NCBI GenBank assembly: GCA_963746995.1
Contig: CAVVDF010000006.1
Span: 15,403-79,402 of the forward strand
DNA: 64,000 nt
Origin: an uncultured Actinomycetes bacterium
Lineage (GTDB): Bacteria > Actinomycetota > UBA4738 > HRBIN12
Direction of reading: 5' to 3'
Shown here: in pieces, positions 2,719 to 59,758 of the stretch
Position numbering within the stretch: position 1 is the stretch's first letter
Layout of the letters: each line of letters begins with the position of its first letter
Notes under the pieces: generated by a model
Database searches by the model: none
The model's input: the letters and a program-made list of their open reading frames with translations, nothing else
Told to the model about the DNA's origin: nothing
Made by a program: the position numbers and the translations under genes

Positions 2719-3512
2719 ATGAAGCGCGCACGACGAGCGACGATCGTGGCGGCGATCGCCCTGATCGCGACGTCGATCGGATGGAGCCAGCCGGTGCTCA
2801 CCGCCCACGCGGTGACGCCGGTGGTGGTCACGATCGGATTCGACGACGGCACGTTGGATCAGTTCGACGCACGCACAGTGCTGAGCGACCACGACATGAA
2901 CGCGACCTTCTTCATCAACAGCGGCTTCATCGGCGACGCCGACCATATGAGCCGGAGGCAGCTGGAGCTCCTGGCGAGCGACGGCAACGAGATCGGCGGG
3001 CACACCGTCGACCACGCGAACATCCAGCCGCTCTCGGTCATCGACGCGACCGCCGAGGTCTGCGACGACCACACACCCTGACCAGCTGGGGGTTCGACGT
3101 GACCTCGTTCGCGTATCCGTTCGGTTCCTACGACGCGACCAGTGAGGAGATCGTGGCGTCGTGCGGCTACACAAGTGCGCGCACCGTTTCGGGCGTCTCG
3201 ATCCACGTGGGCAAGAACAAGGTGGGCGAGACGATCCCGCCGGCTGATGCGTTCGCAACGCGCACGCCGCCCAACGCCAAGAAGGCGACGAAGCTCTCGA
3301 CGATGGAGCAATTCGTGCTGAACGCGGAGTCCGTCGCGCAATCGAGTGGCCAGAGCCTGTGGATCCAGTTCGTGTTCCATCGCTACTGCGATGCGCACTG
3401 CGGCGCGTACACCGTGCAGCCGACGAAGTTCGACGCACTGCTCGACTTCCTGCAGACGGAGGAGGGCGCCGGCCGGGTCAGCGTGCAGACGACCGCCGAG
3501 GCGATCGGCTGA
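2719..3512 (+). pseudogene. polysaccharide deacetylase (carbohydrate esterase 4 / NodB-like), secreted; one frame break
   Basis: GGAGG RBS, then ATG 2719. Signal peptide, then NodB motifs TIGFDDG and HTVDHANI. The C-terminal half (SWGFDVTSFAYPFGSY...) continues in the ORF 2781-3512, with a frame switch near 3065-3085. Confidence 0.7.
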
Positions 3513-4944: not shown

Positions 4945-5223
4945 GTGCCTGACGACGAGCTGCTGACCCGCGCCGAACGGGCCCTGACCGAGATCAAGGT
5001 CAACCAGGGACTGTCTGAGGAGCACGAGGCGGTGCTGGCCGCGCTGCGCATCCGCCTCACGGGGAGCGACCCGACATCGCTCGAGGAGATGCTCGCGGCC
5101 GCGAGCGACGATCGCCAGACGAGCCTCGACGAGACCATCGCGGCGGTCGAAAGCCAGCCGAAGCCTTCCCTGGACGACCTGTTCGCCGAGGAGCCGAAGC
5201 CGCCTCCCGACTGGCCGTCCTGA
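4945..5223 (+). CDS. hypothetical small acidic protein, translationally coupled (TGATG) to the downstream P-loop gene
   Basis: GTG 4945 is in frame with ORF 4798-5223, and the stop overlaps the ATG of the next gene. No recognisable domain and a weak RBS. An upstream ATG 4798 would overlap the aldolase gene on the opposite strand. Confidence 0.3.
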   Translation: MPDDELLTRAERALTEIKVNQGLSEEHEAVLAALRIRLTGSDPTSLEEMLAAASDDRQTSLDETIAAVESQPKPSLDDLFAEEPKPPPDWPS

Positions 5224-5748
5224 TGGCCGATCGCTCCGATGCCGCCGCCGTGTTGATCACCGGCGTGTACGGCACCGGGAAGTCGACGCTCGTGGAGGCG
5301 ATCGCCGGCGAGCTCGAGGAGCGCAGCGATCCGCTACGGCGCGCTCGACCTCGATTGGCTCGGCTGGTTCGACCACGGCGTGCCCGGTGGCGGCCACGAG
5401 GCGGGCTGGCCCGTGAAGCTGAAGAACGTCGACGCCGTCGTCGGCAACTACTACGAGACAGGCGTGCGCCGGTTCGTGCTCGGAGGCTCGATCCTCACGC
5501 ACGCGACGATCGAGGAGATTCGAGCCGTGCTCGCGATGCCGATGTTCGTCGTGCGCCTAACCCTCCCGATCGAGGAGATCGAGCGCAGGCTCTCGTCGGC
5601 GGTCACCGCGGGCCGCGAGGACAACATCCGCGTGACGCGTGCGTGGGTCGCCGAGGGACGCGGCGAGGGGATCGGCGATCTTGTGCTCGTCAACGATCGC
5701 CCGATCCTCGACGCAGTGAACGACGTGCTTACCCACCTGGCGTGGTGA
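5223..5748 (+). pseudogene. P-loop NTPase / small-molecule-kinase-like protein; one frame break
   Basis: Walker A VLITGVYGTGKSTLV in ORF 5223-5972. The conserved remainder (IRYGALDLDWLGWFD...VLVNDRPILDAVNDVLTHLAW) sits in ORF 5380-5748, with a frame switch at about 5326-5334. Confidence 0.55.
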
Positions 5749-7174
5749 GCCCGTCCGCGAGGAGCCGGGCACCGATCTCTCGCACGACCAGCGGCACGAG
5801 GTCCACGTCCTCGGGCCTCGTCCGCCAGTTCACCAGGGCCGGGCGGAACGCGACGCGGCCGCCGTACTCGGTAGCGCCGAAGAACACGCGCCCGTCGAGC
5901 AGCGCCGCCTCGCCGATCCGGCGGTTCAGGTCGTTGAGCTCGGGACCGTCCTGCCACCCGTCGGGGCGATAGCGGAAGCAGACGATGTTCAGCTGCACGT
6001 CAGCCAGGCGCTCCAAGTCGGGCGCCGCATCGACGGACATCGAGAGCCCTTGAGCGAGGTCGAGGTCGTGTTCGACGATCGCACGGTAGCCGTCGCGGCC
6101 GTACGCACGCAGTGTCGCCCACACCGGCAACGACCGCGCCCGCCGCGACATCTCCGGTCCGAGGTACCCGAAGTTCGGCTGTGGATCGTCGATATCGGGC
6201 AGGTACGCGGCGCCCGATCCGAAGACGGCCGGTAGCAGGGCCGGGTCGCGCACGAACGCGAAGCCGTTCTCGTAGGGCACGTTCAACCACTTGTGCCCGT
6301 CCGCGATCACCGACTCGGCGCGCTCGACGCCCTCCACGAGATGCTTCGTTCGCGGGCTCACGGCGGCGAACAGCCCGAAGGCTCCGTCGACGTGGAACCA
6401 GGCATCGTGGCGCGCGGCGAGGTCCGCCATCGCAGGCAGCGGATCGAAGTCGCCGGCGTTCACCTCGCCGGCGCTCCCGATCACGATCGCGGGCGCGCCG
6501 TCGAGATCCCGGAGGGCGGTCTCCATCGCGTCGAGGTCGACACGACCGACATCGTCGCGGGCGAGCTTGTGCACGCGGGACCGGCCGATGCCGAGCATCC
6601 CGAGCGCCTTCACGTCGCTCGGATGGGTGTACCCGCCACCGAGGACGGTGATCGGGGGCGCCGCGCCCACGCCGAGCTCATCGATGTCCACACCCGCGCG
6701 CAACGCGCACCAGCGGCGTGCGCACGCGAGCGCCACGAAGTTGGCCATCGTGGCGCCGGTGGTGAGGACGCCTCCCCACGACGCCGGCAGGCCGAACAGG
6801 CTCTTCAGCCAGTCGATGGACACCTGCTCGAGGCGGGCAGCCAGCGGGGTGGAGACCCACGCTCCCGGATTCTGATCGAGGGTCGTCGCCAGCCAATCGG
6901 CTCCAAGCGCCGCCGGGGTGGTGCCCCCGTCCACGAAGTGGAAGAACTTCGGACCTGCCGAGTGCACGGCCGCGTCGAACCCGCCGACGAGTTCCTGCAG
7001 AGCAGCCAACGAGCCGACACCCTGCTCGGGCAGGGGCCCCCCGAAGGTCGCCGCGACCTCGTCGGCCCGCGGATCGCGTACCGGGCGGTCGGCGAGGGTG
7101 TCGAGGTAGTCACGCGACTCGTTCGCCGCGAAACGGATGACGTCGGGAAGCTCATCGGGATCGGGTCGACTCAT
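5729..7174 (-). CDS. pyridoxal-phosphate-dependent amino-acid decarboxylase (group II; aromatic-L-amino-acid/L-2,4-diaminobutyrate decarboxylase-like)
   Basis: 481 aa from ATG 7174 (MSRPDPDELPD...). PLP-lysine motif SVIADGHKWLNVPY and a typical group II decarboxylase fold signature throughout. Confidence 0.8.
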   Translation of the reverse strand: MSRPDPDELPDVIRFAANESRDYLDTLADRPVRDPRADEVAATFGGPLPEQGVGSLAALQELVGGFDAAVHSAGPKFFHFVDGGTTPAALGADWLATTLDQNPGAWVSTPLAARLEQVSIDWLKSLFGLPASWGGVLTTGATMANFVALACARRWCALRAGVDIDELGVGAAPPITVLGGGYTHPSDVKALGMLGIGRSRVHKLARDDVGRVDLDAMETALRDLDGAPAIVIGSAGEVNAGDFDPLPAMADLAARHDAWFHVDGAFGLFAAVSPRTKHLVEGVERAESVIADGHKWLNVPYENGFAFVRDPALLPAVFGSGAAYLPDIDDPQPNFGYLGPEMSRRARSLPVWATLRAYGRDGYRAIVEHDLDLAQGLSMSVDAAPDLERLADVQLNIVCFRYRPDGWQDGPELNDLNRRIGEAALLDGRVFFGATEYGGRVAFRPALVNWRTRPEDVDLVPLVVREIGARLLADGLTTPGG

Positions 7175-7224
7175 GGACGTCGATGGTACGCCCTGCGACG
7201 GTGGTCGATTCCCGGGCGAAGACC

Positions 7225-7352
7225 CGTCAACAAGGTGACGGAGGATATCCCCATCCACGCAGGAACCCGTCAATCGCTTGACGGGTGAGCGACGTCAACC
7301 GCCTGACGAGATCCCTCGTGAACACCCGCGACGCGCGTCAACCTGTTGACGG
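7225..7352. promoter_or_regulatory. array of four CGTCA-N6-TGACG palindromes (putative operator array) upstream of the decarboxylase gene
   Basis: The four sites are cgtcaacaaggtgacg (7225-7240), ccgtcaatcgcttgacgg (7267-7284), cgtcaaccgcctgacg (7293-7308) and cgtcaacctgttgacgg (7336-7352). Spacings are 43, 25 and 43 bp. They lie in the 163-bp gap between the decarboxylase start and the NYN gene stop. Confidence 0.5.
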
Positions 7353-8435
7353 GATGCCGAGCACGTAGTCGCCGTCGTCGGCGTCCCACTCGAGCGAGAC
7401 CACGCCCTGTGTTGCTGCCGCCTTCGCGAACTGGAGGAACCCTCCGTACCCGAACTTCTTCTCGCTGAAGTCGGGCTGCACCTTCCGCACCTTGTTCTTC
7501 AGGCCCGAGAGGTGTGCGACCTGACCCTTCGCCTGTAGATCGCCGACCACCGACTGGAGCACCGCGAACGCTTCTGTCTCGCCTCCGTGGGTCGGCAACG
7601 ACACCTCGGGATCGCCCTTCACAGAGCCCGACGACAGCTCGATCACGTTGCGCGACGCCAGCAGCCGCAACAGTTCCCCGAACGCACGGAAGCCGTAGTC
7701 GGCCTCGCTGAACGTCGGATCCTTGCGCAGGAGCGCGCGTTTGATGTTCGAGGCGAGCACCGCGCCCCCCGACGTTCGCTCGAGGCCGGCGACCGTCTGG
7801 GCAACGCGCACCGCCAACTGATCGATATCGCCGGACCCCGCGTCATCAACCTGCTCGATCTCTTCGACCGCCGGCGCGGCCGCAGCCGCCTTCTTTGTCG
7901 CGCCCGACCCGCCGCGGCCGCCTCGCGACCTGCGCCGGCCCGCGCCCTCCGGGACGTCCACACCCTCCAACGTCTCGTAGAAGAGGAACTCGTCGCACGC
8001 CGGCGGGAGGAGCTTCGACGTGGAGTCCTTGATGCCGACGCCGATCACGCGCTTGTTCAGCTCGCGGAGCTTGTGCACCAGCGGCGTCAGGTCGCTGTCA
8101 CCGGTGCAGATCACGAATGTCGAGATGTACTCACGTTCGAAGGCCATCTCGAGCGCATCGACCGCCATCTTGATGTCGGCGGCGTTCTTGCGTGACGTGC
8201 CCATCCGCTGTGGGATCTCGATCAGCTCGACATGGCCGCGCGTGAGCATCCGGCGGTCTTCCTCGAAGGCCGACCAGTCCGCGTACGCTTTGCGCGCGAT
8301 CACCCGCCCGCGCTCGGCCAGCGCGTCGAGCACCGGCTTCAGGTCGAAGGTGAGGCCGCCGAGCGCTTCGCGCGCCCCGATGGCCAGGTTCTCGTAGTCC
8401 AGGAACAGCGCGATCCGTTCTTCGTCGGTATCCAC
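7338..8435 (-). CDS. NYN (LabA-like) domain protein with C-terminal OST-HTH/LOTUS domains
   Basis: 365 aa with GTG start. N-terminal NYN signature (ALFLDYENL...ICTGDSDLTPLV), a Gly/Arg-rich linker, then OST-HTH-like repeats. Confidence 0.75.
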   Translation of the reverse strand: MDTDEERIALFLDYENLAIGAREALGGLTFDLKPVLDALAERGRVIARKAYADWSAFEEDRRMLTRGHVELIEIPQRMGTSRKNAADIKMAVDALEMAFEREYISTFVICTGDSDLTPLVHKLRELNKRVIGVGIKDSTSKLLPPACDEFLFYETLEGVDVPEGAGRRRSRGGRGGSGATKKAAAAAPAVEEIEQVDDAGSGDIDQLAVRVAQTVAGLERTSGGAVLASNIKRALLRKDPTFSEADYGFRAFGELLRLLASRNVIELSSGSVKGDPEVSLPTHGGETEAFAVLQSVVGDLQAKGQVAHLSGLKNKVRKVQPDFSEKKFGYGGFLQFAKAAATQGVVSLEWDADDGDYVLGIPSTG

Positions 8436-8462
8436 GTGGTCAGCCTAGTGCCCGTCCATCGT

Positions 8463-9224
8463 TCAGTCGCGGGCATCGAGGAGCGCACGCACGGGCGAGA
8501 GATCGAATGGAGCGCCGCGCATCACGATGAGATGGCCCGCGCCGGCCTCCAGGTAGTCGTCGATCCGACCGACCTCTGCGCCGTCGATCAACACGGTGCG
8601 TTCGATCTCCGCCGGATCGCGCCCGACCTCCTCGCACCAGCGGTCCAGCACGGCGTTCTTGTGGGCGTACCGCTCGGGTGGCCCGAACCCGTTCCACGCG
8701 TGCGCGTGCTGTGCCACAAGCTTCAGCGTCACCTGCTCGCCGCCGCCTCCGATCAGGATCGGCAACGGGTCCTGCACGGGCGGGGGGTTCAGCACCGCCA
8801 GACGGGACTCGATCCGTGGCAGCGCCGCCGCGAGGTCTGCGAGACGCGACCCCGCTGTGCCGAACGGGTAGCCGTACTCGTCGTAATCTCGCTCGAACCA
8901 GCCCGCGCCGATGCCGAGCGTCACACGTCCGGCGGAGAGGTGGTCGACCGTGCGCGCCATATCGGCCAGGAGTTCGGGATTCCGATAGGAGTTGCACGAC
9001 ACCATCGCGCCGAAGCGCACCCGCTCGGTTTCGATCGCCATCGCGGCGAGCTGCGTCCAGCCCTCGAAATGCGGCCCGTCCGGCTCCCCGTAGAGCGGGT
9101 AGAAGTGGTCCCAGGTCCACAGGCTGTCGGCGCCCATCGCGTCGACCTCACGCCAGACCCGGCGAAGCTCGTCCATCGACGCGTGCTGGGGTTGGATCTG
9201 AGCACCGACTTTGAAGCGGGGCAT
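8463..9224 (-). CDS. LLM class F420-dependent oxidoreductase (luciferase-like monooxygenase family)
   Basis: AGGAGG RBS, then ATG 9224 (MPRFKVGAQIQP...). LLM fold motifs (TLGIGAGW, LPILIGGGG). Confidence 0.8.
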   Translation of the reverse strand: MPRFKVGAQIQPQHASMDELRRVWREVDAMGADSLWTWDHFYPLYGEPDGPHFEGWTQLAAMAIETERVRFGAMVSCNSYRNPELLADMARTVDHLSAGRVTLGIGAGWFERDYDEYGYPFGTAGSRLADLAAALPRIESRLAVLNPPPVQDPLPILIGGGGEQVTLKLVAQHAHAWNGFGPPERYAHKNAVLDRWCEEVGRDPAEIERTVLIDGAEVGRIDDYLEAGAGHLIVMRGAPFDLSPVRALLDARD

Positions 9225-9283
9225 GCGACCTCCTGACATGGGACGCGACGCGAGCTCTCTCGACACAGGATAGGGTCGCCCGC

Positions 9284-9913
9284 ATGGCGACGTACGAACG
9301 CCGGCGCGAGGACGCGATCGCCGCCGGGATCGGCGCCTCGATCATCGTTGTCTGCGCGTTCCTGGCACGCAACGGCACGGTGGGCGATCTCGAGGCTCGC
9401 GTCTTCCGAGCGATCAACGGACTTCCCGACGCTCTCGCGCCGGTCATGACGAAGGCGCAGCTCCTGGGGGTGCTCGGTGTGGGGCCGCTCATCGCCGTGG
9501 TCGCGCTGATCGCTCGGCGGTGGCGCCTCGCCCTCGCGGCCCTGCTCGTGACCGTTGGCAAGCTCGCCGCCGAGCGGCTCGTCTGGCAGGTGGTCCAGCG
9601 AGAGCGGCCCGGCACCACGATCGTCGACGCGATCGTCCGAGGCGACACGCCACGCACAGGGCTGTCGTTCGTGTCGGGACACGTGATCTTGATCGTCGGC
9701 CTTGCCGTCGTGATCGAGCCTTACCTGCGCGGCCGGTGGCGCGTGGTTCCGTGGGCCGTCGTTGCACTGGTCATCTTCGCTCGTGTCTACCTCGGTGCGC
9801 ATGCGCCGCTCGACGTCCTCGGCGGCTTCGGCCTCGGGCTCGTCGTCGGCGGTCTCGCGAACGTGATCGTTGGCGTCCCGGCCGACGAGCATCTGGGAAC
9901 ATCGCCCGCGTGA
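9284..9913 (+). CDS. PAP2 family phosphatase (phosphatidic acid phosphatase type 2-like), membrane
   Basis: 209 aa with PAP2 motifs KLAAERLVWQVVQRERP, SFVSGH and ARVYLGAHAPLDVLGG. Confidence 0.8.
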   Translation: MATYERRREDAIAAGIGASIIVVCAFLARNGTVGDLEARVFRAINGLPDALAPVMTKAQLLGVLGVGPLIAVVALIARRWRLALAALLVTVGKLAAERLVWQVVQRERPGTTIVDAIVRGDTPRTGLSFVSGHVILIVGLAVVIEPYLRGRWRVVPWAVVALVIFARVYLGAHAPLDVLGGFGLGLVVGGLANVIVGVPADEHLGTSPA

Positions 9914-10615
9914 GCGACCCCGCCGTCGACCCGCTGCGGAACCATCGCCGCGTCCTGCTGTACTCCTTCTTGTTGTTGGCGGCGCTCGTGCTCCTGCTCT
10001 TGGGGGTCGGGCGTCACCCGGGCGAGCCCGGCACCACCACGACCCTGCCCGCCATCGGCACGTTCGACGGGAACGTCTACGAGTGGATCCAGCCGCACCG
10101 ATCCGCCTGGCTGACGGCGTTCGCGAAGTTCCTCAGTTTCATCGGCGCGGGGCTCGATCACGATCCCCCTGCGCATCGTGGTGGCGGTCATGCTGGCGGT
10201 ACGCAGACGCTGGCGCGCGTTCACGGCATGGCTGCTGACATGGGCGGTCGCGGAGCTGCTCCTCGAGTTCGCCAAGCGATACTTCGAGCGCACCCGGCCG
10301 CCCGATCAGCTCGTCGTGACGAGTGGGTACTCGTTCCCGTCGGGGCACTCGGTGGCGACGGCGTCGATCGTCGTGGCGCTCGTCCTGGCGTTCATGCCGG
10401 CGGGACCGCGCCGCCGCAAGTGGGAGGTGATCGCCGCGGCCGCCGCGTTCGTGATGGCGCTGTCTCGCGTCTATCTGAACGCCCACTGGTTCTCCGACGT
10501 GGTCGCCGGTGTGCTGCTCGGCACCACGGTCGCGCTCGCGTGCGTGGCCGTGATCCACGAAGTGATGCTGCTGTCGGCGCGGCGACGAACGCCCGCTTCA
10601 GCGGGCGGCGGCTAG
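9910..10615 (+). pseudogene. second PAP2 family phosphatase, start overlapping the previous stop (GTGA); one frame break
   Basis: The N-terminal TM region is in frame 1 from GTG 9910. The PAP2 motifs (KRYFERTRP, SFPSGHS, SRVYLNAHWFSDV) are in ORF 10178-10615, with a frame switch at about 10150-10165. Confidence 0.65.
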
Positions 10616-11560
10616 CAAGGCCTCGATCGCCTCAGCGTTGCCCATCGCCTCGTCGCGTGCGAGGTGCCGTGGCTCCTCCAGACCCCTCAGCGCGCGGTGG
10701 ATATGCCGGATCGCCGGGGTGAACGATCGCTCGCCGCTCGGCATCGCGTCCGCCGTTTCGACGACCTCGCCCTCGCGCACCACCGTGAGCGTGTCGCCCC
10801 CTTCCGGGTGGAACGGGTTCGTCATGACGAGCTCGCCTTCGGTCCCGCACACGCGCGTGGTCGTGTCGTACGCGCTGCGGAACCCGCACGAAAGCAGCAG
10901 GCGACGGTCGCCCGGGAACGTGAGCGCCCCCCACAGCTCGATGTCGACGCCTTCCCACACGGCATCGGCGACCGTACGATCCAGCCGCGGCTCGTCGTCG
11001 AACAGCAGCCGGGCCAGCCGGATCGGGTAGCACCCGACGTCTTGGGTCGCCCCCCCGCTGAGCTCCGCCAAGAGCCGCACGTCTTCGGGATCGTCGAGCG
11101 AGAAGTGGAACCGCGACACGATCTCGCGTACCTCGCCGATCGCGCCACCGGCGAGGAGCGCCTGCGCGTGCGTCATCTGATCGTGGAACGGGAAGACGAA
11201 CGCCTCCCACAGCGGCGGGCCGTTCACCGCCAGCACGTGCGAGGTTTCGGCCGGCGTGGCACAGAGCGGCTTCTCCGAGAACACCGCCTTGCCCGCCTCG
11301 AGCGCAGCGATCGTCCACGCCGCGTGCAACCCGTTGGGGAGCGGGATGTACACGGCCTCGATGGAAGGGTCCGCGAGCACGGCCTCGTAGGACCCGACAC
11401 CGCTCTTCACGCCATGCGCTGCCGCCCAGGCCGAGGCGCGGGCGGCATCGCGGCTGCCGACGACGACGGCCTCCCCGTCACCTGCCTCGGCGAGCGCCGG
11501 CAAGAAGGCGCCGGCCGCGATGCCGGCGGTCCCGAGGATGCCCCAGCGGATCGGCTCCAT
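10598..11560 (-). CDS. Gfo/Idh/MocA family NAD(P)-dependent oxidoreductase
   Basis: 320 aa from ATG 11560 (MEPIRWGILGTAGIA...). Rossmann motif GxLGxG and the EKPL motif (AVFSEKPLC). Confidence 0.85.
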   Translation of the reverse strand: MEPIRWGILGTAGIAAGAFLPALAEAGDGEAVVVGSRDAARASAWAAAHGVKSGVGSYEAVLADPSIEAVYIPLPNGLHAAWTIAALEAGKAVFSEKPLCATPAETSHVLAVNGPPLWEAFVFPFHDQMTHAQALLAGGAIGEVREIVSRFHFSLDDPEDVRLLAELSGGATQDVGCYPIRLARLLFDDEPRLDRTVADAVWEGVDIELWGALTFPGDRRLLLSCGFRSAYDTTTRVCGTEGELVMTNPFHPEGGDTLTVVREGEVVETADAMPSGERSFTPAIRHIHRALRGLEEPRHLARDEAMGNAEAIEALLAAAR

Positions 11561-11631
11561 GCCGGCACCGTACCGGATGCGGGTTCCCGCCCGGGAGGCG
11601 ATCGTGGGAGGATCCTGGGCGGGGGGTTCAG

Positions 11632-13717
11632 ATGGACCAACGTGAGCAGGTGGCGCGCCCGTCGGCCGATGCGGCTGCGGCCACGCACAGGCGTCGTCGG
11701 CCCACGGGCGCACCCCCGCCGCTGCCCAAGCACGTCGGCTTCACCGGTGTGCTCTGGCTCGCCCTGCTGTTGGTGGTGGTGGTGGCCGGCTGCCTCTGGC
11801 TCCGCGCCGATCCCGCGACGCTCGACAGGTTCGACGCGAGGATCACCGACGCCGTCATCTCGATGCGCGCCGGCTGGCTCGACACGCTCGCCCGGAGCCT
11901 GCACTCCGCGGGCTCGCGGGTCGGCCTCGCCGTGTTGGGGCTCGCGCTCGTCGTCGCCGCCTGCTGGTTCCGGCGCTGGCGGCACCTCGTTGTCTGGATC
12001 ATCTGCCTCGCCCTCGCCGGGGCGGCGGTGATGGGACTGACCTTGCTCGCTGAGCGAGCGAGGCCCTTCAGCATTCAGCAACTCGGGGCGTGGGAGGGCT
12101 ACGCGACCCCTTCGATCCCGATCACCGCGATCGCGGTCTGCGCGATCGGCGCGGCGTACATGCTGGTCGTCGCCGGTCGGCCACGCTTCTGGGCGAAGGT
12201 CGCCGTCGCCATCGTCGTCGCGTTGGCGGGCACGTTGCGGATCTATCTCGGCGTCGACCACTTCACCGACGTCGTCTTCGGGGCGATCGTCGCGATCGCC
12301 ATCCCGCTCGCGGGCTTCCGCGCATTCGCTCCCAACGACCTGTACCCGATCTCCTACGGGGCGCGGGGCAAGGCTGCGCACCTGGACGTAACCGGCCGAC
12401 GCGGAGAAGCGATCCGGAACGCGATGCAGGATCAGCTGGGCTACACAGTGCACGACATCAAGCCGGTCGGACTTGGAAGGATCCGGCGGGTCGACGCCCT
12501 TGAAGATGACGGTGACCGACGAGGACGGCCGCGACCGGACGGTCTTCGCCAAGCTCTACGCCAACACCCACGTCCGCGCCGACCGCTGGTACAAGCTCGG
12601 CCGATCCATGTTGTACGGGCGGCTCGAGGACGAGACGCCGTTCAAGACCGTTCGACGGTTCGTGGAGTACGAGGACTACACGCTTCGCCTGCTCGGCGAG
12701 TACGGGTTCTCGACGCCGGCGGCGCTCGGCATCGTCGAGATCACGCCCGAACGCGAGTACCTCATCGCGATGGACTTCTTCGACGACGCCGTCGAGATCG
12801 GCGACGCCGAGGTGGACGACCACGTGATCGACCAGGGCCTCACCATGATCCGGCGGATGTGGGACGTCGGGCTGTCGCATCGAGACATCAAGCCCGCGAA
12901 CCTGATGGTGCAGAATGGCGAGCTGCGGCTGATCGATGTCTTCTTCGTGCAGGTGCGGCCATCGCCGTGGCGACAGGCGGTCGACCTCGGCAACATGATG
13001 CTGGTGCTGGCGCTCCGCTCCGACGCGCACAGGGTCTACGAGGCCGCGTTGCGGTACTTCACACCCGACGAGCTGGCGGAGGCCTTCGCCGCCACGCGCG
13101 GTGTCGCCAGCCCCTCGCAGCTACGCCAACAGATGAAGCAGGACGGTCGGGATCTGCTCGCCGAGTTCCGAACGATGGCACCCGCACGCCGCCCGATCTC
13201 GGTGCAGCGTTGGAGCATCCGACGCATCGCACTGATCCTCGTCACCCTCGTGGTACTGCTACTGGCCGCGTTCACGGGCGTCGCGCTCTTCTTCCCGACC
13301 CGGGGCACCGTGAACTCGCCGACCTGCGGTACCGAGCAGACGATGCAGCTGATGGCCCAAGCGGTGCCGAGCGCGACGCAGCTGCCGTGTGTTTCGAAGC
13401 TACCGCTCGGCTGGGGTGTCGGCACCTCGGAGATCGTTCGGGGGCATGTCCTACTCGCCGTCGGTCTGAGCTCGGGCACTTCCACCGAGGTGACCGTGAC
13501 CTTGACCGAGACGTGCCCCGAGCCGGTGGACGGGACCACGCAGATCCCCTTCGAGGGCGGCTGCGTCACCTACCACTCGTCGATCGATGACGCCACGGTT
13601 CCGTCCTTCGAGCCCGGTGGGGGGCTTTCCTTCGTCCAGCGGGAGGATCTCGTTCGGACCGTGGCCGACGACGAGGAACAGATCCTCTGCGGAGCAGGAG
13701 CTCCGCCCTGCCCGTAA
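11632..13717 (+). pseudogene. PAP2-like membrane domain fused to a protein-kinase-like (Kdo/RIO/APH-like) domain, then a TM helix and a Cys-containing extracytoplasmic tail; one frame break at the junction
   Basis: The PAP2-like part is 11632 to about 12470 (RIYLGVDHFTDVVFGA). The kinase-like part is 12473-13717 (EGSGGSTPLKMTV..., HRDIKPANLMV, IDVFF). The frames join as ...GYTVHDIKPVG|LEGSGGSTPL near 12470. Alternatively these are two separate genes. Confidence 0.5.
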
Positions 13718-22889: not shown

Positions 22890-22953
22890 ATGACGATCGT
22901 ACGGCCCGATGCGCTGCAGAAGCGGTCACAGTCTTGACGCCGGTCGCGGTCGA

Positions 22954-54823: not shown

Positions 54824-56418
54824 GGGGTGACCTCGTTCGTTTGTGCCTCGTCCTTCGCTTGTACCCGCAGCGCGCGGTTCACCGCCGCGAGGTACGCGCG
54901 CGCGCTCGCCTCGACGACGTCGGTCGCGACGCCGCGGCCCGTCACGCGCCGCCCGTCGATGTCGAGCTGCACCACGACGTCGCCGAGCGCGTCGGTGCCA
55001 CCGGTCACCGCCGAGACGTGGAAGTTCACGAGCCGGGCCTCGACGCCGGCGGCGCGCGCGATCGCGCCCATCACCGCGTCGATCAATCCGTCGCCGATCG
55101 CCGACTCCTCGATCGTCTCATCGCCCTTCGTGAGGTGGACCGTGGCCCGCGGCTGCAGATGCGTGCCGCCGCCCACGACCACCGATTCGAGAAGGAAGAC
55201 GTCAGCCTCCGCCGCGCCCAGTCTCCTCGGCGACGATCGCGGCCAGATCCTGGTCGGTGAGCTGAACCTTGCGGTCGGCGAGGTCCTTGAAGCGCGTGAA
55301 CGCGCGGTTGCAACTGCGCGTCGTCGAGCGTGATGCCCAGCTTGTCCAGCGCGTCGACGAACGCGTGCCGGCCGCTGTGCTTGCCCAGCACCAGCTGGTT
55401 GCCCTCGAGCCCGATCTCGAGCGGGTCCATGATCTCGTAGGTCGCGCGGTTCGCGAGCACGCCGTGCTGGTGGATGCCGCTCTCGTGCGCGAACGCGCTC
55501 GAGCCGACCACCGCCTTGTTCGGCTGCACGCTGTACCCGGTCATCATCGACACCAGCCGCGACGTCCGGGTGATCTCCTTGATGTTGAGGCCGTGCTGCA
55601 CGCCGAGGTGCTCGCCGACGCGTGCGGACGATCATCGCGATCTCCTCGAGCGAGCAGTTGCCGGCGCGCTCGCCGATCCCGTTGACGGCGACCTCGATCT
55701 GGCGAGCGCCGTTCTCGATGCCGGCCAGCGCGTTCGCGACCGCCAGACCGAGATCGTTGTGGCAGTGCGTCGAGATGACGACCTCGTCGGGCAGCTCCTG
55801 GCGCACGATCCGGACCAGCTCGCCGAACTCCGTCGGCGTCGCGTACCCAACCGTGTCGGGCACGTTGATCGTCGTCGCGCCGTGCTCGACGGCGAGCCGG
55901 TAAGCACTCGAGCAGGAACTCCAGCTCGGTGCGCGTCGCGTCCTGCGCGGAGAACTCGACGTCGTCGGTGTAGGTCTTCGCCAGCTTGACGTTGTCCTCG
56001 ATCGCCTGCAGCACCTGCTGGTTCGACATCTTCAGCATCGCGCCCATCTGGATGTCGCTCGTCGAGATGAAGGTGTGGATGCGCCAGCGATCGGCGCCTT
56101 TGAGCGCCTCTGCGGCGCGCTCGATGTCGCCGGTGGCCGTGCGCGCGAGCGCGGCGATCACGGGGCCGTGCACCGAATCGGCGATCTCGCGCACGGCTTC
56201 GAACTCGCCCTGCCCGAGATCGGGAACCCCGCCTCGAGGATGTCGACGTTCAGCCGGGCGAGTTGTTCGGCGATCTCGACCTTCTCGGCGCGGGTCAGCG
56301 CGATGCCGGGCGCTTGTTCGCCGTCGCGCAGGGTCGTGTCGAAGATCCGTACTACGTCTGATTGGCCTACCGCTTCGCTGCTTGAGCCCTGTACGTCGGG
56401 GTCTGCATCCGTACTCAT
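54820..56418 (-). pseudogene. leuA: 2-isopropylmalate synthase, reading frame broken about five times
   Basis: All LeuA segments are present in order across ORFs 56158-57435 (C-terminal part), 55544-56194, 54820-55863 and 55083-55601. They include [28 protein letters not shown] and the [13 protein letters not shown] region. Frame switches fall near 56200, 55890, 55620, 55300 and 55210. Confidence 0.8.
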
Positions 56419-56420
56419 GG

Positions 56421-57435
56421 TCAACTCGGCACTTTCTTCTCGGACTCCAACCAGGGCATCATCTGGCGCAGCTGCCGTCCCACGTCTTCGAGCTGGGAGG
56501 TCTGCGCCTGCTTGCGAAGTCGGAGGAACTCCGGGAAACCGGCGTCCGCCTCGCCGATCCACTTCTTGGCGAACGTGCCGTCCTGGATCTCGGCGAGGAT
56601 CTGCTCCATCGCCTGCGCGGGAATGCTCGTCGACCACCCGCGGGCCGCTCTGGTAGTCGCCCCATTCGGCGGTGTCGGAAACGCTGTAGCGCATCCACGA
56701 CAGGCCGCCCTCGTAGATCAGGTCGATGATCAGCTTCAGCTCGTGCAGACACTCGAAGTAGGCGATCTCCGGCTGGTAGCCGGCGGCCACCAGCGTGTCG
56801 AAGCCCGTTCTTGACGAGGCTCGGAGACGCCACCGCACAGGACGGACTGCTCGCCGAAGAGGTCGGTCTCGGTCTCTTCCTTGAAGCGTGGTCTCGATGA
56901 TGCCGGCGCGGGCGCAGCCGATCCCGGCCCCGTAGGCGAGCGCGCGGGCTTTCGCCGCGCCCGTCGCGTCCTGCTGCACCGCCACGAGACCGGGCGTGCC
57001 GATCCCTTGCTCGTAGGTACGGCGCACAAGGTGGCCCGGGCCCTTTGGCGCGATCATCGTCACGTCCACACCCGCCGGCGGCACCACCGTGGCGAAGTGG
57101 ATCGAGAAGCCGTGGGCGAACATCAGCATGTCGCCGTCCTCCAGGTTCGGGCGCGATGTCCACGCGTAGACGGCGCCGTGCGACGTGTCGGGCAGCAGGC
57201 ACATGATCACATCGGCGTCCGCGACGGCGTCGGCGGTGTCGAGCACCTTCAGCCCGGCCTCCTCGGCCTTGACGCGACTCGACGATCCGGGGCGAAGCCC
57301 CACGCGGACGTCATGCCCGCTGTCCTGCAGGTTCTGGGCGTGTGCGTGACCCTGCGAGCCGAACCCGAGCACCGCGATCTGCTGTCCGGCGAGCGCGTTC
57401 GGCTCGGTCTCCGCCTCGTAGTAGATCGTGGCCAT
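56421..57435 (-). pseudogene. ilvC: ketol-acid reductoisomerase, reading frame broken about three times
   Basis: The N-terminus has [17 protein letters not shown] intact. The middle ([19 protein letters not shown]) and C-terminus ([14 protein letters not shown]...) are in other frames, in ORFs 56736-57029 and 56421-56609. Confidence 0.8.
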
Positions 57436-57484
57436 GGTCGGCGTCCTTCCTTCCTCGTCGGTGCGTTCGCGGCCCAGGGTCGCC

Positions 57485-58013
57485 TCAGGCGTCGTTCGCG
57501 ACCTTGAGAGACCGGTCCTTGATACCGCGGCCGCCGCGGCCGAGCGCGATCCGCCCGGTGCGCGAGAGCTCGACGACGCCGAAGTCGCGCAGCAATCCGA
57601 GCAACGCCTCGAGCTTCTCGGACTTGCCGGCGGCCTCGAGCGTGAGCGTCGTCTTGCGTCACGTCGACGACGTTCACGCGGAACACGTCGGCGATCTCCA
57701 TCACGCGGGCTCGCCCGTCGCCGTCGGCGCGCACCTTGACGAGCATCAGCTCGCGTTCGACCGCCGAGCCGGGATCGTGCTCGAGGATCTTGATCACGTT
57801 CACCAGCTTGTTCAGCTGCTTCGTGACCTGTTCGAGCGGCTTGTCCTCGACATTGATCACGATCGTCATCCGCGAGATCCCCGGTTGCTCCGTCGCGCCG
57901 ACGGCGAGCGAGTCGATGTTGAACCCGCGCGCCGCGAACAGACCCGCGATCCGGGTGAGCACGCCGGGCCGGTCCTCGACGAGCACCGAGATCGTGTGCA
58001 GGTGGCCGTTCAT
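57485..58013 (-). pseudogene. ilvN: acetolactate synthase small (regulatory) subunit; one frame break
   Basis: The ACT domain is [28 protein letters not shown]. The C-terminal part [16 protein letters not shown]...KVANDA* is in another frame, with a switch near 57645-57668. Confidence 0.75.
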
Positions 58014-59758
58014 ACGATCGGCGCCTCCCCCGGGATCTCGTGGGGCGCGAACTCGGGCCCGAGGATGATGTCGTCGTTCGATGCGCCCGCGGGCACCATC
58101 GGGAACACGCCCTCGCGCGGGTCGACCCGGAAGTCGATCACGACACTGCGATCCTCCACCGCATACGCCTTCTCGATCGCCGCGTCGACCTCCTCGGGGC
58201 TCTCCACCCGGAACCCCACCGCCCCGTACGCCTCGGCGAGCCGCACGTAGTCGGGCGACGTCCGGATTGAGGTACACGCCCGAGTAGCGCTCGTCGAAGA
58301 ACAGCTCCTGCCATTGGCGGACCATCCCGAGATAGCCGTTGTTCAGGATCGCCGTGATGAACGGGATCTGTTCGGTGTTGCTCGTCGCGAGCTCCTGCGC
58401 CGTCATCTGGAAACAGCCGTCGCCGTCGATCGCGACCACCCGTTTGTCGGGCTGGCCGGTCTTCGCGCCGAGCGCCGCGGGCACGGCGAAGCCCATCGTG
58501 CCGAGCCCGCCGGAGTTGATCCAATGCCGCGGCCGCTCGAAGCGCCAGTACTGCGCACGCGTACATCTGGTGCTGTCCCACGCCCGGCCACGAGGATCGT
58601 GTCGTCGTCGGCGAAGTGCGCGCAGCCGCTCCACGCAATACTGCGGCTTGAGCCGGTCCGATTCCTGGCCGTAGCGCAGGGGGTACTGCTGCCGCCAGTC
58701 GGCGAGCTGTCCGAGCCAGGCGGACCGGTCGGGCGCGCCGTGCTCGCCCTGCCGCTTCGCCAGCTCGACGGCGAGCTTGCCGATCACGTCCTTGCAGTCG
58801 CCGACGATCGGCACGTCGGCGACCCGGTTCTTACCGATCTCGGCCGGGTCGACGTCGACGTGCACGATCTTCGCGTCGGGGGCGAAGGCCGCGAGCTTGC
58901 CGGTGACGCGGTCGTCGAACCGCGCGCCGAGCGCGACCAACAGATCGGCGCGCTGCATCGACGTGACCGCGGTGTAGTTCCCGTGCATGCCCGGCATGCC
59001 GAGGCAGAGCTCGTGCGAATCGGGGAACGCGCCCCGCGCCATCAAGGTCGTGACGACCGGGAGGCCGGCCGATCGTGGCGAGCTCGAGCAGCTCCGGGGG
59101 CGGCGTCGGCCTTGATGACGCCGCCGCCGACGTAGAGGACCGGCCGCTCCGCCGCGAGGATCAGCTTCACGGCCTCGGATACCTGGCGGTTGTTGCCCTT
59201 CGTCGTCGGCCGGTAGCCCGGCAGGTTGATCTTCTCGGGCCAACGTACTCGACGTCGGCGTTCAGCACGTCCTTCGGCAGGTCGACCAGCACGGGGCCGG
59301 GGCGGCCGGTGCTCGCGATGTGGAACGCCTCGCGTACGGTCTCGACGATGTCCTCGGCCCGCTTCACCAGGAAGTTGTGCTTCGTCACCGGGATCGTGAT
59401 GCCGGTGATGTCGGCTTCCTGGAAGGCGTCGTTGCCCACGACCGGCGTCGGCACCTGGCCGGTGAGCGCGACGATCGGCACCGAATCCATCTTCGCGTCG
59501 GCGAGCGGCGTCACGAGGTTGCGTCGCGCCCGGTCCGCTGGTCGCCATGCACACGCCGACCTTGCCGGTCGCCCAGGCGTAGCCCTCCGCCGCGTGGCCG
59601 GCGCCTTGCTCGTGACGGCAGAGCACATGGCGGATCGGCGACCGGTCGACCAGCGGGTCGTAGATCGGCATGCTGGCGCCGCCGGGGATGCCGAAGATGA
59701 CCTCGACGCCCTCCTGCTCGAGGGCCTTGAGGACGGCGTCCGCGCCCTTGACGGTCAT
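58010..59758 (-). pseudogene. ilvB: acetolactate synthase large subunit, reading frame broken at least six times
   Basis: All TPP-enzyme segments are present across ORFs 59042-60073, 59167-59628, 57249-59243, 58138-58638 and 58010-58246. They include GIPGG, GPGATNLVT and GLGTMGFAVPAALGAKTG...AIDGDGCFQM. Confidence 0.8.

Follow-up and report, generated by a model that had tools for sequence, protein, structure and literature searches.

Four palindromes of the pattern CGTCA-N6-TGACG lie immediately upstream of a gene for a PLP-dependent amino-acid decarboxylase in a 64-kb stretch of DNA (hereafter the window), and we propose, with a probability of roughly one half, that they form a selectively maintained cluster of putative sites for one sequence-specific homodimeric DNA-binding protein encoded elsewhere. 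Recognition by a dimeric protein is suggested because the four sites share their sequence, and not mere pairing ability, and because the half-sites are the constrained part of the array. Protein binding, the family of the regulator and the direction of regulation are all matters that we infer. The array is young and confined to one species-level group, in which it was added upstream of an older minimal promoter. The window has a G+C content of 68.7%, and its closest relatives are soil metagenome-assembled genomes of uncultured Actinomycetota or Actinomycetes. The features on which the argument is built are the following, with the sites read on the sense (minus) strand of the flanking genes.

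5729 to 7174, minus strand: gene for a group II PLP-dependent amino-acid decarboxylase of 481 aa (PF00282, E = 1e-46), downstream of the array.
7183 to 7188, minus strand: -10-like hexamer TACCAT, 8 nt before the decarboxylase ATG, presumed to be a leaderless-type core promoter.
7225 to 7240, no strand assigned: site 1, CGTCACCTTGTTGACG, nearest to the promoter; an exact match to the pattern, with the palindrome extending over 7224-7241.
7268 to 7283, no strand assigned: site 2, CGTCAAGCGATTGACG; the palindrome extends to 22 bp (7265-7286, 9-bp arms).
7293 to 7308, no strand assigned: site 3, CGTCAGGCGGTTGACG, 25 bp from site 2; an exact match to the pattern.
7336 to 7351, no strand assigned: site 4, CGTCAACAGGTTGACG, overlapping the last codons and the stop of the NYN/OST-HTH gene.
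7338 to 8435, minus strand: NYN plus OST-HTH/LOTUS (LabA-like) gene (PF01936 and PF12872), whose 3' end carries site 4.
22924 to 22939, no strand assigned: possible weaker fifth site, CGTCAAGACTGTGACC, the only other match to the core GTCA-N6-TGAC in the window.

The two minus-strand genes are separated by a gap of 163 bp (7175-7337). The decarboxylase scores far under every NCBIfam equivalog cut-off, and among its relatives in the PDB are DOPA and DABA decarboxylases. Its true start is the ATG at 7174, since the orthologues align from MSRPDP and since an 11-bp indel in the closest related contig (L250, described below) breaks the in-frame upstream TTG extension of the decarboxylase ORF. The NYN/OST-HTH protein is strongly conserved in the lineage (78-98% identity), and its stop codon TGA (7340-7338) lies inside site 4, which is spelled by the codons P-S-T-G-stop. 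On the other side of the decarboxylase, a small P-loop ATPase gene (5223-5748, plus strand) is interrupted near 5326 by a frameshift, tblastn following it first in frame 3 and then in frame 1, and it is intact in L250 (174 aa). Other window genes look fragmented as well, namely TPP-enzyme pieces at 58010-59628, ilvC-/ilvN-like pieces at 56421-57658 and an HCS_D2 fragment at 55083-55601, all of which, together with the ATPase, suggests long-read indel errors or pseudogenes.

The exact pattern CGTCA-N6-TGACG occurs at 7225-7240, 7268-7283, 7293-7308 and 7336-7351 and nowhere else in the 64 kb, for which chance would provide 0.26 occurrences; none of 100 dinucleotide-preserving shuffles of the window, used as the null model for this count, reached four. 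With one mismatch allowed the window holds 12 matches against 6.6 expected, which is background level. Further copies of the array were not found in the window, even with two mismatches in clusters, and further copies of the palindrome were absent from 615 kb of DNA from 51 related genomes. Moreover, arrays of at least three palindromes with the same arms are limited, in 679 kb of lineage DNA, to this one and an unrelated triplet (L034, 1658-1730), which consists of three GCCGA-N4-TCGGC at 27-bp spacing and may be a coding tandem repeat. The remaining core match, at 22924-22939, is located in a 64-bp gap that has a gene for a class III aminotransferase on one side and one for a GSDH-family dehydrogenase on the other, and lies about 35-50 bp upstream of the start of the dehydrogenase. 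The regulator of the array may have a second target here, or the match may be a product of chance, since 1.3 matches to the core would be expected in the window. As it is a weak match, the 64 kb contain no convincing second member of a regulon.

The four sites lie within 127 bp, and an earlier note on this DNA, in which they were first pointed out, was accurate both about their spacing of 43, 25 and 43 bp, measured here from start to start, and about the array filling the gap between decarboxylase and NYN gene, with site 4 over the NYN stop. That note also called the sites evenly phased, which is wrong. A distance of 43 bp corresponds to about 4.1 helical turns, so that sites 1 and 2, and likewise sites 3 and 4, face the same side of the helix, but 25 bp correspond to about 2.4 turns, which puts the two outer pairs on faces that are roughly opposite. 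Because one spacer does not resemble another, the sites are not copies from a recent tandem duplication.

In the sequence database, as judged from protein clusters, this species group is represented by only two genomes, that of the window and L250, a JGI contig. L250 encodes an NYN protein 98% identical to that of the window and shows the same order of F420-type oxidoreductase, NYN gene, gap and decarboxylase. As the array is also present in this independent assembly, it is not an assembly artefact. Overall identity between the two loci is 92.7%, and about 20% of fourfold-degenerate sites are different. All four sites are found in L250 with the 43/25/43 spacing exactly preserved. Only one of 40 half-site positions differs, against 4 of 24 central bases and 21 of 88 aligned positions in the spacers outside the sites, which also carry one indel. 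The constraint on the half-sites is significant against the neutral rate (binomial p = 0.0015) and against the spacers (Fisher p = 0.002), both values being drawn from one pairwise comparison. Within the limits of that single comparison, the half-sites are under purifying selection relative to the spacers. The one half-site change among the four sites, which is uncompensated, is in site 1 (CGTCACGGTGTTGACA in L250); site 2 differs by a swap of C:G to G:C at a flanking pair, site 3 has become a better palindrome with its half-sites unchanged (CGTCAAGCGGTTGACG), and site 4 is identical, as is the -10-like hexamer. The sole indel between array and promoter, of 11 bp, is placed between site 1 and the hexamer; this length is about one helical turn, so that the array faces the -10 at the same rotational angle in both genomes. 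A fixed rotational relation between array and promoter is possible on this basis, the indel being a single event.

Part of this pattern could also be read at the level of RNA. In such a reading the four palindromes would be stem-loops in the 3' UTR of the NYN gene or in an intercistronic transcript, working as a terminator lacking a U-tract, as a 3'-end stabiliser or processing signal, or as REP/BIME-like elements, and an RNA-binding protein might recognise them. Each site can in fact fold, and in site 2 a 9-bp stem capped by a GNRA-like loop is stable (-14.5 kcal/mol, and -13.9 in L250), and the double change at its flanking pair would fit base pairing. The change in site 3 is G·U-compatible on the sense strand, and the array starts exactly at the stop codon of a gene whose protein has predicted RNA-binding domains. 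However, sites 1, 3 and 4 fold at -5 to -9 kcal/mol, near the level of random 24-mers from the window (mean -4.9), and the folding of the whole region reaches a z of only -1.9. For structure in RNA the four stems need not be identical in sequence, and the half-site change in L250 lacks a compensating partner. Furthermore, the 64 kb and the 615 kb of related DNA contain no other copies, unlike what is seen in REP families, and downstream of NYN homologues with 87-88% identity there are neither palindromes nor such hairpins. A scan of 6900-7700 found no hairpin followed by a T-run that could be an intrinsic terminator, and a T-run does not follow any of the four stems. Rfam gave no matches at the gathering threshold across the window, nor at E <= 10 within 7100-7450. 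We therefore consider a primary role in RNA unlikely, and the cluster of putative protein-binding sites on DNA accounts better for the constraint on the half-sites.

The orthologous loci locate the array in time. We examined 80 loci encoding relatives of the decarboxylase, 51 of which hold clear orthologues (63-86% amino-acid identity) from the same uncultured lineage. The test set in the earlier note, conservation of the sites upstream of orthologous decarboxylases, had a mixed outcome, as the motif is absent from all 51 loci and is kept only in L250. The array is consequently not ancestral to the control of the decarboxylase, and its addition is seen in the two known genomes only. From these sequence comparisons the array is recent and confined to one species-level group, upstream of a promoter that is older. 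The upstream neighbours of the orthologous genes vary from genome to genome and the gap is usually of only 30-60 bp, and a TANNNT hexamer (TAGCAT, TACCAT or TAGACT) is found 6-9 nt before the start in at least 38 of the 51 loci, and by eye in nearly all. Shine-Dalgarno sequences are lacking at the orthologous decarboxylase starts. All this suggests that a conserved leaderless-type promoter belongs to the decarboxylase gene itself and is embedded in the end of whichever gene precedes it; in several genomes the TAG of the hexamer doubles as the stop codon of the upstream gene. A scan of 6900-7700 in the window detected no sigma-70-type promoter. The TTGACG of the half-sites was considered as a -35 element and discarded, because none of the four copies, in either genome, is followed by a suitably spaced -10.

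The array is also located where gene order changes. A conserved kinase-like gene (12473-13717) is found about 5 kb upstream of the decarboxylase in the window and in four related loci (L001, L003, L005 and L011), and the genes in between differ. In the window they encode a GFO-family oxidoreductase, two PAP2 phosphatases, the F420 oxidoreductase and the NYN protein; in L001 the same interval holds a class III cyclase, a TLC/HEAT/cNMP-binding protein and a dodecin. As the interval genes differ between genomes, the array stands at the edge of a swapped block, which compared with these four loci spans about 5 kb (7338-12472) and has the array exactly at its decarboxylase-side junction. Genes for a class III adenylate/guanylate cyclase and a TLC/MFS-HEAT-cNMP-binding protein adjoin the decarboxylase in L001 (1972-5969) and also, upstream of 6001, in L003 and L005, the dodecin being present in L001. 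It is curious, though perhaps coincidental, that CRP/Cmr-like sites occur in the window at the place where these relatives have cyclic-nucleotide genes.

This position at a synteny breakpoint, at the edge of an interval (kinase-like gene to decarboxylase) whose gene content is different in relatives, is what could be expected of a remnant of a mobile or plasmid element with no role for the decarboxylase, either a MITE-like insertion with palindromic ends or a partition site like sopC. The sopC site of the F plasmid has a 43-bp period and a 16-bp palindrome, both of which the array recalls. The outer sites are also 18-nt inverted repeats with 89% complementarity, which follows solely from each of them being itself a palindrome. 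However, a target-site duplication is lacking from the flanks (gcgaaga and atgccga), and the DNA searched (the window plus 615 kb) contains no second copy of the array. A similarity search of a plasmid collection gave no match, and the window has no transposase, ParA or ParB gene nearby. The 43/25/43 spacing with dissimilar spacers is not that of a regular tandem repeat, and a decaying remnant would not show the constraint seen in the half-sites. On these grounds, that is, the lack of a target-site duplication and of multiple copies in one case, and the irregular spacing with neither partition genes in the window nor a plasmid match in the other, we do not class the array as a MITE or as a sopC-type partition site, and we regard an origin of this kind as very improbable.

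The end of the NYN gene points in another direction. The NYN proteins of the lineage almost always end in ...DYVLGVPxG (C-termini of P0001-P0120), whereas that of the window ends in ...GIPSTG, and the window and L250 together can be written ...G(I/V)(P/S)STG, with one extra residue. The codon for this residue supplies the 6-nt centre of site 4. Site 4 looks as if it had been built from the native C-terminal codons plus one extra codon, that is, assembled in place and not inserted as a ready-made element, which speaks further against a remnant. A bolder extension would be that the whole array is a newborn regulatory module, arisen in situ at a gene-order breakpoint and bringing the leaderless decarboxylase gene, until then constitutive, under the control of a global regulator in a single species. 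Three of its sites would have arisen in intergenic DNA and the fourth would have been sculpted from the last NYN codons by one added codon, Pro-Ser-(Thr)-Gly-stop being made to read CGTCA-N6-TGACG. A more radical version would have the hairpins as RNA targets of the adjacent NYN-LOTUS protein. We offer this extension as a speculation that is quite unlikely to hold in full.

Returning to the cluster of putative operators, its geometry limits how it could act. If transcription starts 0-2 nt before the ATG, as we assume for these positions, the site centres fall at about -57, -100, -125 and -168 in the window (the centre of site 1 being about 57 bp upstream of the start codon), and each is 11 bp closer in L250, where site 1 is at about -46. 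Neither of these positions of site 1 is among those canonical for CRP at class I or class II promoters. As the -10 hexamer and the start codon are free of sites, simple steric repression is unlikely. Four dimers would span about -50 to -175 in front of the leaderless-type promoter, and those on sites 2 and 3, 25 bp apart, would be near enough to touch. Cooperative occupancy could then modulate initiation at a weak -10-only promoter from upstream, by activation; alternatively, it could repress through cooperative wrapping or looping of the upstream DNA, or the bound proteins could be a roadblock insulating the decarboxylase from read-through of the NYN gene. The 51 orthologues evidently express the decarboxylase without any array. 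Since the orthologous promoter works without it, the array would add control and not enable expression. The reading of the array in the earlier note is partly supported: a multi-operator array for a dimeric regulator is the best fit to the selection on the half-sites, the fixed spacing and the shared sequence, and the array is not ancestral to decarboxylase control.

With respect to the protein that would read the sites, all four are 16-bp dyads of 5-6-5 layout with the core G2 T3 C4 A5 / T12 G13 A14 C15, which is also present in all four sites of L250. According to its sequence, this core matches the Cmr/CooA subtype of CRP/FNR-family sites, and a CRP/FNR-type protein with a recognition helix preferring C at position 4 would be the single most likely reader, as a candidate and not as an established one. 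A winged-helix regulator, for example of the MarR type, is a possible alternative reader. In Cmr a Pro stands at the residue aligned with Glu189 of CRP(Mt), and a cognate CRP/FNR protein would likewise be expected to have a non-Glu residue there. With a mycobacterial CRP as the tblastn query, the window and the 615 kb of lineage loci yielded no CRP homologue that has a DNA-binding domain; the only match, in relatives, was to a cNMP-binding domain. No regulator gene is adjacent to the array: when about 50 ORFs and the stretches between them were annotated with Pfam, the only clear transcription factor in the window was an IclR-family gene 9 kb away.

It is possible, although we consider it doubtful, that the array is an operator for a regulator outside the CRP family (MarR, TetR, GntR or a phage-type repressor) and that the resemblance to Cmr/CooA sites is coincidental. 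When the sites of both genomes are counted, eight in all, A6 is present in five and T11 in every one, which gives the form CGTCAA-N4-TTGACG, and the palindrome of the MarR repressor OseR has the same GTCAA-N4-TTGAC core (PMC12341727). Arrays of CGTCAA-N4-TTGACG are also carried by unrelated phage contigs, with four sites at 21 bp in L216 and three at 30 bp in L234. The OseR operator and the phage arrays together make it plausible that proteins of several families read this core, and the motif alone cannot fix the family of the regulator. However, regulators of the MarR and TetR type are usually encoded beside their targets and none is found near the array, the AT-rich flanks on which the OseR site depends are absent at the window sites, and the phage loci have no homology to the window while their neighbouring ORFs have no family matches. 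The phage arrays (L216 at 1625-1775 and 5494-5572, L234 at 3293-3369) lie in gene-poor stretches of viral contigs with 60-63% G+C and are presumably phage operators or iterons. More generally, the paired-site matches among those listed from a metagenome scan, and those from two viral scans, were tandem repeats, phage operator-like arrays and low-GC phages, none of them homologous to the window. In a metagenome contig of 69% G+C (L090, 8873-8931), again without homology to the window, two identical copies of CCGTCAACACGTTGACGCC lie exactly 43 bp apart between two minus-strand ORFs.

If our reading of the four palindromes as operators is right, they would provide a clean natural case of a multi-site operator added before an older minimal promoter in a single species-level lineage of uncultured soil Actinomycetota. 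This would speak to the speed of regulatory rewiring without revealing a new mechanism, and in this sense the array is a real feature but of an ordinary kind. The form CGTCAA-N4-TTGACG is, furthermore, a concrete motif with which the regulon and the regulator could be sought in the lineage.

Finally, the array can be compared with systems in which clustered palindromes are known. The OR and OL operators of phage lambda consist of several similar dyad sites for one dimeric repressor, placed about 24-25 bp centre to centre and occupied with pairwise cooperativity; they overlap the promoters that they control and adjoin the repressor gene. The array resembles them in having several dyad-symmetric sites and in the spacing of sites 2 and 3, but here no site lies over the -10 or the start and there is no adjacent repressor gene. 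The REP/BIME elements of enterobacteria are clustered short imperfect palindromes with hundreds of dispersed copies. Short palindromes, alternating spacer lengths, a gap between genes on the same strand and a beginning at the 3' end of a gene are all shared with the array; however, most of its stems are weak and about 680 kb of lineage DNA contain no other copy, and the lack of dispersed copies led us to reject membership of this class. To the best of our knowledge, integron attC sites, resolvase res sites, Xer/dif, parS, DnaA boxes and the sites of BldD, Rex, LexA and TnrA or LysR boxes do not fit in sequence or layout.

In the case of OseR, a MarR-family regulator of Streptococcus suis, the operator has the GTCAA-N4-TTGAC core noted above (PMC12341727), and it differs from the array in being a single site with essential AT-rich flanks, near the -10 of its own operon, in a Firmicute host. 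The closest parallel is with Cmr (Rv1675c), a regulator that belongs to the CRP/FNR family and acts in the M. tuberculosis complex. It binds the 16-bp palindrome TGTCA-N6-(C/T)GACA, for which it requires 2G, 3T, 14A and 15C; what sets its sites apart from those of CRP (4G/13C) is 4C/13G, and CooA has almost the same motif (PMC4705688, PMC5758884). Cmr sites come in clusters of four to six, four of them near Rv2623 and six at acr/acg, with binding that is cooperative and good only when they are together; they can overlap coding sequence, and for its autorepression Cmr uses a site located 150 bp before the start codon (PMC4705688, PMC5758884). The window sites differ from the Cmr consensus in having C/G and not T/A at positions 1 and 16, one L250 site having A16, and these two positions are not listed as essential for Cmr (PMC4705688, PMC5758884). 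They differ also in the conservation of A6/T11, which gives them a 6-4-6 look that would equally fit a MarR-type site, and in their host, a distant uncultured lineage in which a cognate protein could be no more than a remote paralogue. Shared with Cmr sites are the 16-bp palindrome of 5-6-5 layout, the bases G2, T3, A14 and C15, the pair C4/G13, the clustering and the phylum, Actinomycetota.
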